Origin: Amphiscolops sp. MND2022
Taxonomy: Eukaryota
Reading direction: 5' to 3'
DNA: 64,000 nt
NCBI GenBank assembly: GCA_964187785.1
Contig: OZ076409.1
Span: 47,680,001 to 47,744,000 of the forward strand
Shown here: positions 40,690 through 60,700 of the stretch, piece by piece
How the letters are laid out: each line of letters begins with the position of its first letter
Numbering within the stretch: position 1 is the first letter of the stretch
Translations under genes and position numbers: made by a program
The notes under the pieces: model-generated
What the model was told of the DNA's origin: nothing
The model's database searches: none
Seen by the model: only the letters and a program-made list of their open reading frames with translations

Positions 40690-41190
40690 CGTGTCCGTTT
40701 AAGTTCGCCACTTTTAAGTTCGCCACATATAAGTTAGCCCGTAAATCTTAGCCATATTTAATTTAGCCACCATATATGTTCGCCACATACAAGTTCGCCA
40801 CATTTTCGGCCAATCAAATTCGAGCATTCAAAATTACGATAACGTAGTCAGATATGTTCACATACCCCTAGTGCCCTAAATGCAGGAGCGAAGCGAAGCG
40901 GAGCGACGTGCCATATGGCCATGCCTCAATGTTGCTACTTGGCGAAGGGAGCAAAGCGACCGAGCCATACAACAAGTATGCTAATCGCCACTAAATATAA
41001 CCAATTGAAAATAATCGCTGATATGGAATTCTTTCATTAGCTGAAATGTGGCGAAAATAAACGTGGCGATCTTATATGGTGGCTAACTTAAACGTGGCGA
41101 TCTTATATGGTGGCTAACTTAAACGTGGCTAAGTTTTACGGGCTAACTTATACGTGGCGAACTTAAATATGGCGAACTTACAACGGCACC
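40690..41190. mobile_element. Foldback-like MITE with long sub-repeated TIRs
   Basis: Arms made of AAGTT(C/A)GCCAC sub-repeats in inverted orientation; 8-bp TSD CAAAGATT (40682-40689, 41191-41198). Confidence 0.88.
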
Positions 41191-50413: not shown

Positions 50414-51945
50414 AGTGTAACGAAACAATCGAGAATCAAGAGAGACAATGAAAAGTATTTCACTGCGATTGAGAAAATCAGAATCAGGCCAAACCGTTCG
50501 AAAAACAGGGCACATTGGATTTAAAAAGAGACAAATGGAGACAGAAACACTAACACCGGACGCAAATGAAACAGGACTGGTGTCAACATGTTCGGAACAA
50601 ACAATAAGTGTACCGACCATCAGTTTTAACAGGTATCTTGTCGCAACCGGTGTGTGATATGTACCAATGGAAAAGCAAACACTGTACCAATGTCCAAGCA
50701 AATACGGGACGTGACTCAAGACGAGCGAAAAGCTTGTCGCGACTTGAAGATTATTAGCACGGGTTAAACCAATGACGAGAAGTTCTCGAAAACACCATTA
50801 TGTCTTGATAAACAGTGGCACAAAGAAGGACCTGAACAGAATCAAAAACTGAAGAAAAAACTTTTCAACGATATTTGGACGACAATTCTATAATAGCAAA
50901 GCTACTCAGAACAACGCTGTTGACACTAATGCACATTGGTGACCAATAGTGGTAAAGAATACCCAAACAAAGTGCGACGAGTCTATACCAAGCAAAAAGT
51001 GAGGTACGAGAATCAAAATATGATTATTTGATTCTCTTACCTCACTTTTTGCTTGATACAGACTCGTATTTGCTTGGACATTGGTACAGTGTTTGCTTTT
51101 CCATTGGTACATATCACACCGGTTGCGACAAGATACCTGTTAAAACTGATGGTCGGTACACTTATTGTTTGTTCCGAACATGTTGACACCAGCCCTATTT
51201 GCGTCCGGTGTTAGTGTTTCTGTCTCCATTTGTCTCTTCTTGAATCCAATGTGCCCTGTTTTTCGAACGGTTTGGGCCTGTTTCTGATTTTCTCAATCGC
51301 AGTGAAATATTTTTCATTGTCTCTCTTGATTCTCGATTGTTTCGTTACACTAAAATCGTTCTCGTTGAGGCGTCAGGTCATTTCATTAGTCGTTCTATCG
51401 CACTGTCGTTGGTAACAATGGGTGCCTTTTGTTTACTTCACATAGATGTCTTCATCAAATGCTTTGCATTCTTTTCCTCTAAACACAGTTACTCTGTTAG
51501 TACGTACTGTTTGCAGGCTTCCATTCTATAAAATGTATTGTTCAAGTTTTGTTTTTGCTGTTTGCTTCATATAGACACGCTGCGGGCCAACATCTACCCA
51601 CCACCGAGAAAATCGGATCAAGAAATCCGTTTAAGTTTTCGGACTAATCAGATTTAAACACCGGATATTTGACATACTAATTTTTGTCAAACATTTAGAT
51701 GTTGGCCCGCAGCGTGTCTATATGAAGCAAACGGCAAAAACAAATCTTGAACAATACACTTTATAAAATGGAAGCCTGCAAACAGTACGAACTAACAGAG
51801 TAACTGTGTTTAGAGGAAAGGAATGCAAAGCATTCGATGAAGACATCAATGTGAAGTAAACAAAAGGCATCCCATTGTTACCAACGACAGTGCGATAGAA
51901 CGACTAATGGAAATACCTGACGGCACAACGAGAACGATTTCAGTG
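50414..51945. repeat. Compound inverted duplication A-spacer-C-C'-A'-B'-spacer-B
   Basis: A 50414-50706 / A' 51065-51351; C 50977-51017 / C' 51027-51067; B' 51348-51596 / B 51696-51945; arms differ by scattered substitutions and indels. Confidence 0.92.
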
Positions 51946-53953: not shown

Positions 53954-54629
53954 GGCACTCAATCAGAAGAAGCAACAACAGCCATGGACAATTTCGTCGG
54001 TGAGACAACAGTAACTGATCAAAGCGGTTATAATGAAACAATTCCAATTTAACACCAAAAATTTGATGATTCCATATGATAAAAAACGACAACGATGAAA
54101 ATCAGCATCAATTTTTCGGACCATGTCATCTATTTTCCCCCAGGTACAACTTGTTAGGAATATCCCCCCAACACGAAAGCATATTTTGTTCTTGAATAAA
54201 AATATTTCGCTAATAAGAGAATATCATATGATTGTGAATGCTCAGAAGATTGTCTCCACAACTCTTTGGAATCTTCAGGCAAAAAAGTTTCATAATTTTT
54301 TGATATTATTGTCCAAAATAGCAGAAATTCACGTTTGCTATAAACGAAAATCGTATCAAAAGGCCCCTATTTGGCGCAACTTTTTTCGGCTATAAAATCT
54401 AATGAGCAACTTTTAACTGACAGTCAATGTAATTGATAGGATTATGTCGACATCAATTATTTTATTGAACCAAAATTTCAACGCAAACGATGTCGACATA
54501 ATGGTATTTGAACCTTCTGTCTTACTCCCCCCCCCGCCGCAGTTTGGGGCGGAAATAGATGACATGTGTCGCGTTATGACTAACGCTTAATGAATAATTT
54601 AAAAGCAACTGCAACAATAAAGTACTCAA

Positions 54630-55115
54630 CAAAAACACCTGATTTAATAAAAAAGCACAACAATCATCCCAGGGCTACTCTTCCGTTTCTATACAAAAAG
54701 CACCTGCATAGATACAAAGCATAATGAACATCTTTGTGCTACAGTGCAGCTTATGATTGAAAAACACCTGAATTAATAAAACACTCGACAATTGTCCCCT
54801 GGCTTCAGTGCAGTTTGTATTCAAAAAACACCTGCAAAAACAAAGCAGGAAATTAAACTAACCTGAAGAAGGAGGAAGATGGGGATAAATTTAATGTAGG
54901 GCGGCCGACAGAAAAAAAGAAGCCGCAAAATAATATAATTTAGGGATACAAATACCGCCGGATTGCACAAATGAAAAATTCTATTATTTAACGCGGTGAT
55001 TCGAAATCTAAAGCTAAGCTCTGATTGGCTCAATGCGAAACAGGCCACCCATGCACTTCGGCAGAAGTGCTGAACTGTTTTTATACGGCGTGCACAGGCT
55101 GGAGCTTCATTCTTC
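54630..55115 (+). promoter_or_regulatory. LTR promoter/enhancer: phased E-boxes, CCAAT box, TATA-like box, Inr
   Basis: CACCTG at 54636, 54701, 54765, 54829; ATTGG at 55024; TTTTATA near 55079-55085; TCATTC at 55107, about 27 nt after the TATA-like box. Confidence 0.5.
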
Positions 55116-55437
55116 CCGCCAACCGCAAAGCTTCAACTTAAAGAATCTCTCTCCCTTCCTCACTTCTCCTTCTCTTCCCTCCACTTGCTCCAACTCTACT
55201 TCTTCTCTTCTCTTCACTAAATTCTTGAATTATTTCCCCCGTGGACAAAAACTTCTATCTTCCTTTCTTCCCCTCTTTTGCTTTGGCTCTAAAATTTGCT
55301 AAGTCACATCCTTCTTAGCTGAATTTTCTATCTTAGAAAATTCAGTTCAATCCGACAACCAACAGTCCCCGGTCTGGTGAGTGAAAAATAACTTAGTTTC
55401 CTTCTGTGGAGATTTCTGAATCTCCTTTTTCTAACTT

Positions 55438-56044
55438 AATTCTATCTTAGAATAGTTCCACTGATTTTACTCAGTGGTTGTTAAAATTCTATCTTAGTAA
55501 AATTCCGCTGATTTCACTCAGCGGTTGTTTAAATTCTATCTTGGAATAATTCCACTGATTTTACTCAGTGGTTGTTAAAATTCTATCTTAGTATAATTCC
55601 GCTGATTTCGCTCAGCGGTTGTTTAAAATTCTATCTTCGAATAATTCCACTGATTCTATTCACTGGTTGTTAAAAATCTATCTTAGTATAATTCCGCTGA
55701 ATTCACTCAGCTGTTGTTTAAAAATCTATCTTAGAACAAATCCACTGATTCTACTCAGCGGTTGTTAAAACTCTATCTTAACAAAAATTCCGCTGATTTC
55801 ACTCAGTGGTTGTTAAAATTCTATCTTAGTATAATTCCGGTGATTTTAGTGATTTTACTCAGCGGTTGTTAAAATTCAATCTGACAATAATTTCACTGAT
55901 TCTACTCAGTAGTTGTTAAAATTCTATCATAGTATAATTCCGGTGATTTTAGTGATTTTACTCAGCGGTTGTCAAAATTCTATCTTAGAATAATTCCACA
56001 GATTGTGCTCAGTGGTTGTTAAAATTCTATCTTAGAGTAGAATT
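55438..56044 (+). repeat. 47-bp tandem array (about 12.5 units, partly a 94-bp dimer), each unit with inverted-repeat hairpins
   Basis: TCTATCT-type cores at 55441, 55488, 55535, 55582, 55630, 55677, 55725, 55772, 55820, 55876, 55923, 55979, 56026; two units carry a 9-bp internal duplication. Confidence 0.95.
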
Positions 56045-57152
56045 AAATGAATGGTTAGCGCTACACAAGTATTAACAAAATCATTTCACCTTATTTACCC
56101 TGTAAATTTGTTTCTTACCAAACGTTTCAATACTGTCTCCATACCCAACAGAGCAGTGACTCTGAAAAACTAAAATTCGTCAGTTTAAACTATCACTGAT
56201 TATAAACATCCCTTATTCGGAGCTAATCTAAAGCATTTTCAAGATGAAGATGTAAAAACTTGCACTTCTATCTGTAATTTTTAAAAATGTTTTCTGATGT
56301 AATTTATAAAGCTACTTTGCTCGAAGTTAAAATAAATCCTTTAAATTTACTGCTGAAGTAAATAAATAGTTGATTTGCTGCTGAATTTAACTTATGATGG
56401 AATAGACACTGAGATGCCTAAAAAATTTCGCTTAGTACTATTGTCCGTTCACGTGAGATAATTCAACATATTTACTTATCTTACTTTCCTTTTAGTCAGA
56501 GAGCTCATTTACATACACTGCCTTGCACGTACTCACGCAATTTCCTTTGTTAACACGTACACGCAAGGCACTTCCTTTCTAGTATTACACAGAGTAAGCT
56601 TTGAGACTTTCTTACTCACTTCTAATCAATATTTAAATACTTGCCTGAAAATACTTTGCAAAATGCTAAGTAAGCTGAACTGACTAAAACTGATAACAAT
56701 TGAACAGTCCCTTGAAAAGAGAGAAACAGAAATCTGCAAACAGTAAAAATTTATCTATGCGTGCGACAAACTGGGCGACCAGCGAGGCAGTTTCTTCAGT
56801 AAATGAGCAATCACTTGGAATCCCTACTCGTTGCAGTTAGGGTTAACTACTTACTCAATCTGATTTCAATCTTTACTTTGTTTCTTTGTTTGCCACAATA
56901 TGTTACAACATTACCAGGGAAAACGCACATTTCCGAGATACTCATCAGCAATTGAGCACGAAGACCTCACCGCCCAGACTCAGGTATCACCTCACCGGAA
57001 AACCAGCAGTTTTTGACGCCCACCTCGCCTGGTCAACCGTCAACCTCCCATCCACCTGGCATTGAGACACTACTTCAAACCAAAATACAATCACTTACTA
57101 TACCACGAAAGTAGCTCCCCCGAAAAATTTTCTCAAAAACCCAGCTCTGAAG

Positions 57153-57701
57153 ATGTCAACAACGTCAAACACTCTAATACGCCACGACGACCCCCAACTA
57201 ACTCTATCACCTCCAATCCTTACAAAGGTGTCTACAAGAGGTGGAATGGTACTTATCCAACTGGACCAAATCACCGTTTCCCATCTGAGAACAGCCTGGA
57301 TGCCACACCCGTTTCACAGAAACTATTACTACTGGGCTACCACAGGACCCCTTGATTTGCAACCTCTCGAATTGCCACCCCTCATTGCAACAGTTAAAAT
57401 TTGTTGGAATGGATGTTCCAAACAAGAAAGTAATAAATTTGTATCTGTTTTTGTTGAAATCCGAGACCCTGACCGCAAAATTCTCTCCACCCCCTTCACA
57501 GTACGGCTCTTTTTTAAAAACTTCAAGAACAAAAACGGACAGTCACTGCACCGAAGCTTCAAATTAACGCCTTCTGGAAATAGCATCGAAGGTGGAATCA
57601 AAGATTTCCTGCCCCTCACTATTTTCAACGCTACTCTAGCTAAAGACAATATCGTCACTTTCGGCATTCTTATCAAACGACTCTCACCCCCAGCTCCGTA
57701 A
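57153..57701 (+). CDS. Intronless 182-aa ORF with a TRAF-C/MATH-like domain, downstream of an LTR and PBS
   Basis: By-eye match to the TRAF-C pattern: STRGGMVLIQLDQI, ATVKICWNG...KFVSVFVEI, ILSTPFTVRLFF, GGIKDFLPL...LAKDNIVTFGILI. No stops or frameshifts. Confidence 0.65.
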   Translation: MSTTSNTLIRHDDPQLTLSPPILTKVSTRGGMVLIQLDQITVSHLRTAWMPHPFHRNYYYWATTGPLDLQPLELPPLIATVKICWNGCSKQESNKFVSVFVEIRDPDRKILSTPFTVRLFFKNFKNKNGQSLHRSFKLTPSGNSIEGGIKDFLPLTIFNATLAKDNIVTFGILIKRLSPPAP

Positions 57702-60700
57702 GATACATTTCTACCCTCAATAGTCTTTGGTACTTTCTCGGACCCTTTCTTCTGGGCACCCCTCTGATAGCAAAATTTTAAGCAGACAACCTGGACCCAC
57801 CGGTCTTCCTAAAATACTTAGACTTAGTTTACTATATAGACATAACACTGCTTGTTCTAATGGTTAATGCAGGTGTGAATGTGGCGATATTGGGTAGAAG
57901 GGACGGATATTTGGTTCGAACCTCGCGCCAGGAGTAATGTTTGAAAACATTTGCAAAGCTAGTTTATGTCAAAAAGTTGCCCTCAGATTTTTAATAACAC
58001 TAAGCGTTTTTTCAGAAAGAACTTTTTTATTTGCTTAAAAGGTCTCTCTTTGATAATGTTGATGGTTTTTTTTAAAAAAAGTTTTGTGAGCCTGAAGGAT
58101 CACTCTTTGTTGGGTTTTTCTGCACTGCGAAACTTTTATTCAAAAATGCTTTCCATTGAATGGCGGTTAAATTGCAATGGTCACATCGGAAACGATTTTT
58201 TTTGGGGCTCATTGTTTCTTGAGCATTTTTGAAAAACGCATTTTTGAAAACAATTTTTAAAATTACAGATTTTGATTGGTTCCGTTTATGCATTTTTCTC
58301 CCATTCTATTTCACTTGAAACTACTGGAGATTGCTGGAATGTTCTTTCCTGTTGGTGTGGAGCTTTGAGTGCTAAATTTCGAAGGTGGAGGTTTTTAGAT
58401 CAAATCCCGCGCTAGGTTGAATAACTATTTTTTGAAGTTTGACGACGCAAACGTAGACAATGGTTAGGTATATTTCGGAAGTGTGATACCTTTTTGTGAT
58501 GTTTCTTTACCAAATGGTTTTCTGTTTTTGGCAAGAGAAAAGCGTTCTTTTGAGCATAGTCGGTGTAAGATCTCGATAGCTAGGTTAAAACGAATAGTGT
58601 ATCTCGAAGCTTTCAACTGTATCTCACTGCTTTTATATCAGTAATGAATTAAATATATCTAACTCAACATGTACATAAATACTACAAAAATAGAACAGTT
58701 CTAAGTTATTAATTCTGAGTTTGTTAGCCAACAACTCTACGACTCAGTTTTTCTTCACTGTGGTGTGCCATGTCACAGTGGGTTTCCGTATGGTTTTTTC
58801 GGCATTTTGCGATATACCAAAAACATTTTCCTAATTTTATATTCTAGAGGTTTTTGTTGTTGAAAACTTGTTTTCGAGTGTTAGAGGTAACCTCTTTGGT
58901 TTTTCAGTACAGTGACTTTGAGTTTATATTCTGTCTTGATGATGTCAGTTAGAAAAACTCGTTTTTCGAACCCGAAGGGTCACGCCAATTGGTTATTAGT
59001 AATTTTGGCACTATGCTATTTTCTTTTTTTTTCGTTTCATTATAATTTCATTATGTTTCATTATACTTTCGTTATTATTTCAATTAGGAAAAGTCATTTT
59101 TTGTACAAACTGTTTCTCACTGAGTAGCCGAGCTTGTGTATCTTTTCAATTCGAATTTTGCTAACACTGATTTGGGATAAATTTTGAGTCGATGAAAAAA
59201 AAATGTTTTTCAACGTTTTCTCGGTATGTTGTTTTGATCGGCACAAATTAGTGTTCGAGTTTTTTTTCGTTTTCAAACTTTTGATTCTTTCCTAAACGTG
59301 TTTTAAAATTGTTTTCTGACAATAATTTTATGACGACAACGCCCTGTATCAATGATTTTTTCGCGAATTAGGTCAAGCAAAAGATGTACAGTTGATGTAT
59401 CTTTGATTAAAGAAAACTATTTTAAAAAAAACTCTCGACGAAATCCCCTTTTTCTCCAAGATGTTGAAATTGCAGCCAATTTCTGTCAGATATTCCCGTG
59501 ACGAAGGCTATTGTCCGCACTTGGCGTGTGTCAATTTTTTGTATTCTTTAAAATTGAATAATAAAATACTGCTCTCTGACAAAAGAATGTCTTTCGTAAA
59601 AATATTCTGTACACTCTGTCGTCACTGGCGATGCCCCGCGGAAAGTTTCGGTTGTGTTCTTCCTACAATCGCGCAATGCTCGCGTCTCAGAAAACACAGA
59701 AACACAAGACAACTTGTAAAGACATCAAAGACACTATAGAAAACGGTAGACACATAATCAAAACAAAAAACAGCCACTCAAGCAGTTGATACAAAGTCAA
59801 AGAATTACTTTATAAAACCTAACTAGACTCACGTATTAGCTAGAAACGCTCCTCGCGCTGAGTGGCATTTCACTTCATGCAAACGGCAGCTTTAAAAACG
59901 ATAATGATGCGGTACATTTAAAAATTGCCATTAATTGCTAGTTTATTGGGTTTTGTCAGGAACGGAACAGTGCTCAGGTCGACCCTTTTTCGAAATTTTG
60001 AATCAGTTTAAATTGAACTATTCTCAAAGTTATATCTGAAAATTTTGTTATATTCTACGAAACAAGAAATTTGCTCTTTCAGAATCTAAGTCAATAAAGA
60101 GGCTGGTTTGTATCTGACTAATTTTGAAATCGAATTCGCTTCAAATGAAATCCTAATGGTTCGTTTTATGATAAGTAAAACGATAAAAATGCGCTTTATC
60201 CAAACTTTTGACTTCATATCTGAACTGATTTAGTTTGATATCTCAACTGCTACGAAGGCGGATATTCGCATCTTTTGCATCTCTCCATTTTAAATTTTTG
60301 TATTACCGTTTTCTGATGAACCGTAAACAACGGTGAAAAATTCCATTTATCTGAACCAATGAAGTTTTATCCAGATCACTTTCCAGGAATAATTGGGGTT
60401 TGAATTTAACCTGTTTTCAACTTCTATATCATTTCGAAATGAACTTTAGTTACATCTTATGACATGAATTATCTAACGTTAAACAATGTACTATATTTAT
60501 ACGATTGACGTTCCATACGATTTATTTTAGGTCAAAGGGTCAAAAGAGAGGAAATGAAATTTATGAGCGAGTTTGATTGAACTAATTTTCAGATTGGTAG
60601 AAACTATTTCAGTTCGAAACAATTACATGCTTGCTCTTTGTTGAACAATTGGGACTTTCAATCATTGGTTTAGAGAATCCGGTAATGTCCTTAAAAGCGT

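Follow-up and report, generated by a model that had tools for sequence, protein, structure and literature searches.

In the window analysed here, a 64,000-nucleotide stretch of Amphiscolops sp. MND2022 DNA (assembly GCA_964187785.1, contig OZ076409.1, positions 47,680,001 to 47,744,000 of the forward strand), we found the 5′ half of a non-autonomous long terminal repeat (LTR) element whose family, by the comparisons below, derives from env-bearing Ty3/gypsy helpers by deletion of gag-pol and retains a gene that those helpers lack. This gene, which we call ORF182, encodes a stand-alone protein with a predicted TRAF-C/MATH fold. The reading that we favour, with somewhat more confidence than doubt, is that the gag-pol-less derivative is probably copied in trans by its helpers, swaps LTRs with them, and carries a probably host-captured MATH gene whose predicted action is that of a decoy against TRAF-type defence signalling.

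An earlier note on this DNA had proposed a possibly non-autonomous LTR element carrying a stand-alone MATH gene. A search of the species' own 1.07 Gb assembly supported this proposal: ORF182 gave at least 134 matches (150 of 187 candidates scored), and 54 loci, a lower bound, were assigned by hand to the family of the window element, so that the linkage of gene and LTR recurs at no fewer than 54 loci. A primer-binding site (PBS) was recognized by pattern in 27 of the 30 top loci, mostly 372-401 nt before the ORF182 start codon, and the other three adjoin LTR matches. In most copies the PBS is complementary to the 18 nt, counting CCA, at the 3′ end of a tRNA-Met(CAT) gene (in L124), which replaces the tRNA-Arg primer suggested earlier. 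The assembly also contains tandem tRNA-Met-like units at ~220-nt spacing (G000 C12, 35.59-35.68 Mb; L130), where most of the 394 tRNA-Met matches lie (100 listed). Among 28 copies examined, 16 had both ends visible and could be scored, and every one of these showed a 4-bp target-site duplication (TSD), a G-rich polypurine tract, a total length of 6.2-7.3 kb and LTRs of 1.5-2.3 kb; the two-LTR copies with a TSD and the same ORF for which the earlier note had proposed a search are thus present in the genome. The LTR pairs are 99-100% identical in many copies, indicating that the family moved recently. We found no gag or pol in the derivative copies read. In complete copies ORF182 is followed by remains of env and then of a second, coiled-coil TRAF gene (TRAF312); within a sample of 20 copies drawn by ORF182 score, ORF182 was intact in 18, env in one and TRAF312 in one. 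Env is also intact in L131, which together with L034 represents a longer derivative with an internal part of 5.6 kb, no gag-pol, and open frames for env, ORF193 and TRAF. The env-ORF193-TRAF block of these two loci is 99% identical and stands behind ORF182 variants that are ~76% identical, a sign of cassette exchange.

The derivation of this family can be followed in its helpers, which have LTRs of the same family (family A) and the same PBS, and which encode a 56-aa leader ORF (ORF0), gag, protease (PR), a TARG1-like macrodomain, reverse transcriptase (RT), RNase H (RH), integrase (IN), four small ORFs, env, ORF193 and TRAF312. The order of their Pol domains, PR-RT-RH-IN, is that of Ty3/gypsy elements (Metaviridae), and among solved structures the best match to the helper RT is Ty3 RT (E 2e-22). 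The helper env lies after pol and matches PF24664 (E 1.8e-31), which we take to be the chuvirus/gB-like env type; a search with an env fragment gave at least 65 copies at 90-100% identity (150 of 4405 candidates scored). The deletion junction of the window element connects the leader directly with the integrase tail, after which ORF182 follows; two old ORF182 sublineages have this junction in common. In sister family B (three copies, L071-L073) a 50% homologue of ORF182 is located between pol and env. The integrase-tail remnant upstream of ORF182 and the pol-env position of its homologue in the sister family together show that gag-pol was deleted and that the accessory gene was thereby moved next to the PBS. 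ORF182 itself was found in none of 10 fully seen family-A pol-env intervals, nor in the decayed helpers inspected, and two genome-wide protein searches (150 of 187 and 150 of 202 candidates scored) revealed no autonomous copy closer than 50%. The earlier note had placed the MATH gene in place of gag; this is correct as to position, but as a pol-env accessory gene shifted upstream by the deletion, ORF182 does not, on this layout, stand in for Gag functionally.

Several further features of the helpers were seen. The macrodomain, TARG1/OARD1-like, lies in Pol between protease and RT (L141:2953-3402; E 4e-10). The four small ORFs of the pol-env interval (L151-L159, L170), one of them antisense, match no known family, and three repeats of ~160-170 nt stand immediately 5′ of env (L152:4560-5010), in the derivative too. 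The coiled-coil TRAF 3′ of env (L165-L169 and helpers) recurs in four LTR families at 18-56% identity, and in family A its N-terminus has a weak PAM2-like motif.

Among 13 young copies ORF182 DNA is 98.7-100% identical, yet their LTRs are of three types with a mutual identity of only 53-67%; one of these types is 98% like the LTRs of young helpers, another is 91% like that of helper L164, and the third has no close counterpart among the 19 helper LTRs compared. The first 700 nt of the window LTR are 92% like the LTR of a decayed helper (L064). Near-identical ORF182 genes behind divergent, helper-like LTRs show repeated LTR exchange with helpers, for which co-packaging with template switching would be the simplest account. 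One could also suppose that the passenger proteins interfere with the helper in the manner of defective-interfering elements, and that copies persist by lowering helper load. The number of passenger loci (at least 54) is similar to that of family-A env copies, and the derivative keeps a chimeric hydrophobic ORF upstream of ORF182, which could poison the helper leader protein. However, a close ORF182 homologue is a normal gene of the autonomous family B, and young helpers and passengers coexist with near-identical LTRs; we consider such interference very unlikely.

The assignment of ORF182 to the TRAF-C/MATH fold is based on its AlphaFold model (pLDDT 84.6), a beta-sandwich of this type, including the helix after the first strand, whose folded part begins at about residue 20. 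As the earlier note's suggestion of a TRAF/MATH-like protein would predict, the best Foldseek match is TRAF3 (E 1.4e-7, TM 0.60), followed by TRAF1 and TRAF2, with E values from 1e-7 to 2e-6. Sequence identity to these three is 12-16%; over TRAF1-5 and the MATH domain of SPOP, which is also among the matches, it is 10-16%, with TM 0.55-0.60. The Atlas neighbours of ORF182 are MATH clusters (SPOP- and USP7-like, 0.92-0.93), at a recognition value under the Atlas mark for reliable assignments. At the curated Pfam cut-off the window ORF182 had no match, and MATH_2 was seen in 5 of 19 relatives with a best E of 7.7e-5, below the cut-off. The protein family is lineage-restricted: a profile search returned 57 matches among 1.84 billion representatives, and the two named members among the 20 clusters looked up are both from an acoel worm, which suggests that the host is probably from the acoels or their kin. 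Cellular TRAFs have trimerising and ubiquitin-ligase parts besides TRAF-C, with a coiled coil and usually RING and zinc fingers N-terminal to it; ORF182 resembles them in fold, but it is 182 aa long, lacks coiled coil and RING, and has extra N-terminal strands.

A tree of the ORF182 family (40 rows) joined the retroelement copies and L074/L075, a single-copy chromosomal pair, in one clade (support 100/99) within a wider set of chromosomal paralogues. Because the retroelement genes are nested among single-copy chromosomal paralogues, ORF182 was likely captured from a host gene family. Its base make-up is G-poor like that of the element (0.15 vs 0.25). Two points weigh against a host origin: the placement of L074 as sister is weak (82/33), and the paralogue L081 has Polinton-like genes close by, so that some "host" copies may be settled cargo. 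A cluster of single-copy stand-alone MATH genes, likely the host family, is found at G000 C5 39.8-41.9 Mb (L074-L077, L081) and on C6 (L078); the distance from L081 to the Polinton-like virion genes is 2.3 kb.

A second type of mobile element carries the same gene family. At G000 C1, ~63.54-63.56 Mb (L146:6528 to L147:3375), we observed a multi-copy Polinton-type element of ~17 kb with AGTAGT ends, a 6-bp TSD and 7.6-kb inverted arms that are 99% identical; its relatives are L079, L080, L082-L090 and L150. Each arm holds one MATH gene of the ORF182 family (~22% identity), the centre holds a disrupted coiled-coil TRAF similar to the one in LTR family D, and no polymerase or integrase is present among the long ORFs listed for the element. 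A single clade for the two mobile MATH groups was rejected (AU p = 2.6e-5; 19 rows, with the group chosen after the first tree). From this topology, the Polinton-type element took the MATH family independently.

In the mechanism that we propose, complete helpers would copy the derivative in trans, its RNA being co-packaged in helper particles, and template switching within shared particles would swap LTRs between the two. ORF182 would be expressed from a spliced or reinitiated message. Its product, having neither coiled coil nor RING, would occupy TRAF-binding motifs or rival the host paralogues with no signal passed on, and would in this way help the particle-producing cells, to the benefit of helper and passenger alike. 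Such a counter-defence role is plausible. The similarity to SPOP- and USP7-type MATH domains, both among the Atlas neighbours and, for SPOP, among the fold matches, would suit a housekeeping adaptor that recruits or stabilises helper Gag, integrase or RNA-bound factors and so gains a packaging edge, and ORF182 is retained where env is lost. TRAF1-5, however, are the best fold matches, and an unrelated DNA element without Gag took the same MATH family, pointing to a common host target; an adaptor of this kind seems unlikely to us.

Between the old sublineages dN is 0.13-0.15, dS 0.9-1.1 and dN/dS 0.13-0.15, and differences at the three codon positions number 32/22/70, values that indicate purifying selection on ORF182 between these lineages. 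Furthermore, deletions or frameshifts in env and TRAF312 recur at the same places across copies, and the start and stop of ORF182 are kept. Other observations weigh against selection in the derivative itself. For 16 distinct young copies pN/pS is 0.64 among singletons (p 0.07) and 0.51 among shared changes (p 0.09), and the two classes do not differ; synonymous sites between the sublineages have diverged beyond the flanks (~77-80% identical); the integrase-tail frame too has a third-position bias (10/13/22); and the 18 intact ORF182 genes in 20 come from score-picked loci, many lower-ranked copies being broken. Since the flanks are less diverged than the synonymous sites, some of this selection may have acted before the element became non-autonomous, and our main doubt is that it may date from lost autonomous donors. 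ORF182 would then be a useless relic, carried beside the cis-signals for packaging, and purifying selection would have occurred in autonomous donors now lost or unassembled. The non-significant selection in young copies, the better conserved flanks and the exchange of cassettes between lineages (as in L034 and L131) all fit such a relic. It is harder to reconcile with the breakage of env and TRAF312 at common places while ORF182 keeps its start and stop, and with the absence of any autonomous copy above 50% identity among the candidates scored in the two protein searches. We regard the relic as a possible but doubtful alternative to the decoy.

The window copy itself (Table 1) has both LTR termini, TGTCGC and GCGACA, at the positions given by the earlier note, and these boundaries are reproduced in other genome copies. 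The CACCTG repeats, CCAAT and TATA-like boxes, GTGAGT, 47-bp array, AATAAA, PBS and open 182-aa ORF that it listed are likewise all in the sequence; the short upstream ORF from 56803 had not been described, and in many other copies it stays open over 92-115 codons. Relative to most copies, the window PBS has one base absent and one altered, and ORF182 starts 384 nt past the LTR end. The copy breaks off at 57847, where family similarity ends, and no 3′ LTR was found in the remaining window or in the following 20 kb. At ~90% similarity to its closest relatives, the window copy is to be judged older than the recently moved members of the family.

Table 1. Features of the window copy, in window coordinates.
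Feature	Position	Strand	Description
5′ LTR	54567..56768	+	2202 bp, TGTCGC...GCGACA; boundaries common to other copies
Four CACCTG E-box-like motifs	54636..54834	+	starts 54636/54701/54765/54829; spaced 64-65 nt
Reverse CCAAT and TATA-like box	55024..55086	+	putative promoter; CCAAT at 55024, TATA-like at 55080, ~56 nt apart
GTGAGT, splice-donor-like	55377..55382	+	~60 nt 5′ of array; equivalent place in divergent LTR subtypes and helpers
Array of 47-bp units	55438-56036	+	12.3 copies; each unit with 7-bp stem and 6-nt loop
AATAAA	56331 and 56361	+	within 5′ LTR
PBS for tRNA-Met(CAT)	56772..56788	+	slightly degenerate in window copy
Leader stretch	56798-56903	+	75% like helper leader
Upstream ORF	56803..56955	+	hydrophobic N-terminus of helper leader ORF fused in frame to integrase tail; stop at codon 51
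Integrase C-terminal tail remnant	56911..57105	+	tblastn 42% identity, E 2e-13; blastn 71% over 82 nt
ORF182	57153..57701	+	182 aa, open; divergent stand-alone TRAF-C/MATH protein (predicted), no coiled coil
Conserved 3′ stretch after ORF182	57702..57847	+	91-98% in close copies

Within the LTR, the order of reverse CCAAT, TATA-like box, donor and array is kept across family-A LTR subtypes and helpers, and the spacing of the first two is maintained in most of the subtypes scanned. The four CACCTG motifs (shuffle mean 0.11, maximum 2) lie in the likely U3 enhancer. The AG directly 5′ of the leader ORF start could be an acceptor for the LTR donor, in which case splicing would yield a message without array and PBS. 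AATAAA is present as a motif, but its supposed role as a poly(A) signal was not borne out, its place varying among LTR subtypes and the 3′ part of the LTR having no such motif in L036, L041 and L050. The array is where the earlier note saw it, but it is usual for LTRs of this family, also in the helpers. In 380 array units the stem pair 3-18 is G-C in 174, A-T in 155, G-T in 22 and A-C in 19; the alternation between G-C and A-T (329 of 380 units) indicates that the symmetry of the array is kept. Its folding z-score is ~-6 on both strands, and no Rfam family reached its cut-off; the data are compatible with an RNA hairpin as well as with a DNA palindrome. Regions rich in palindromes are described for the LTRs of maize Sireviruses (PMC4728375). 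Elsewhere in the window we noted nested long inverted repeats at 50414-51945 (92-100% complementary), probably a foldback element; inverted arms made of 15-bp units at 40691-41189; and a dispersed repeat that occurs at least 20 times between positions 4 and 63125, a piece of which also lies just 5′ of the family-B MATH gene in L071.

Large retrotransposon derivatives (LARDs) are non-autonomous elements with long LTRs and an internal region without coding capacity. The window family resembles them in gag-pol loss, helper dependence, LTR exchange and long LTRs (1.5-2.3 kb), but its ORF182 is open and selected between sublineages, which places it outside that class. LTR swapping between autonomous and non-autonomous partners was reportedly described in soybean by Du et al. 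in 2010. A rotifer non-autonomous LTR family, TelKA2n, is reported to retain env (PMC5408684); what distinguishes the window family from such derivatives is a captured cellular signalling gene missing from the helpers that bear its own LTRs. The same source describes extra ORFs common to different retroelement classes of one genome, a situation like ours in that one accessory ORF type occurs in unrelated mobile elements (PMC5408684); here, in contrast, MATH/TRAF genes are carried, and the other carrier, a Polinton-type DNA element, acquired its gene in a separate capture. On Polinton-related viruses, a figure legend labels a TRAF-like gene (PMC8502044).

MATH cargo in gypsy elements is already known. 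The giant planarian Burro/GYPSM1 elements are described as combining an env region of mononegavirus-like type with a MATH_TRAF_C domain, and in Dugesia tigrina Burro MATH occurs as an accessory ORF placed upstream (PMC6431247), so that the layout for which the earlier note knew no standard family has a precedent. Burro is likewise a gypsy element with env and MATH, but it is an autonomous element that encodes a single polyprotein of 4,900-5,100 aa, its env standing between gag and pol (PMC6431247). In the helpers here the small ORFs are separate, env follows pol and a coiled-coil TRAF lies at the 3′ side, while it is a non-autonomous derivative of 6-9 kb that carries the stand-alone MATH gene. 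MATH genes are also reported to be expanded in a planarian (PMC6109357). In the literature searched we found no published account of the window family or of another non-autonomous element that keeps a MATH gene absent from its helpers.

Ty3/gypsy "errantiviruses" with a gB-type env are described as widespread, and our helpers share with them gag-pol-env, a PF24664 fusion glycoprotein, LTRs and a tRNA PBS (PMC13524379). The window element, in contrast, is itself without gag-pol, and the helpers have ~3 kb of accessory ORFs between pol and env, exceeding the 500-1000-nt gap limit of that survey, in whose main text the words acoel, Xenacoelomorpha, MATH and TRAF are absent (PMC13524379). The helper leader ORF recalls sORF2 of the MDG1 group, a short hydrophobic ORF of 60-210 aa upstream of gag with one membrane span and an MGxxxS/T motif (bioRxiv 10.1101/2025.03.14.642691): it too is short, hydrophobic and 5′ of gag (its membrane span was judged by eye), and its start is kept in the derivative. 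It differs in being 56 aa long, under the 60-aa limit, in starting with MSN or MSY and lacking MGxxxS/T, and in that the helpers have env.

Non-autonomous elements are usually regarded as pure parasites without useful genes. The passenger described here keeps a probably captured signalling adaptor that is absent from its current helpers. Since a single genome holds the helper, the sister family and the likely host source genes, the question of whether a passenger benefits its helper becomes testable. More tentatively, and with little confidence as yet, the derivative may supply in trans a long-kept, host-captured MATH protein that the helpers have lost, while taking on the LTR of each new helper, so that the family would be a complex endogenous virus with a split genome. 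If so, the capture by the Polinton-type element, beside a coiled-coil TRAF, would point to an undescribed, lineage-specific MATH/TRAF defence pathway countered by RNA- and DNA-based elements alike. More generally, invertebrate env-bearing gypsy elements can bear accessory gene sets like those of retroviruses, which surveys with short limits on the pol-env gap would miss, and because unrelated mobile elements have twice captured members of one host MATH family, that family stands out as a candidate defence pathway in an animal group that has been little studied.

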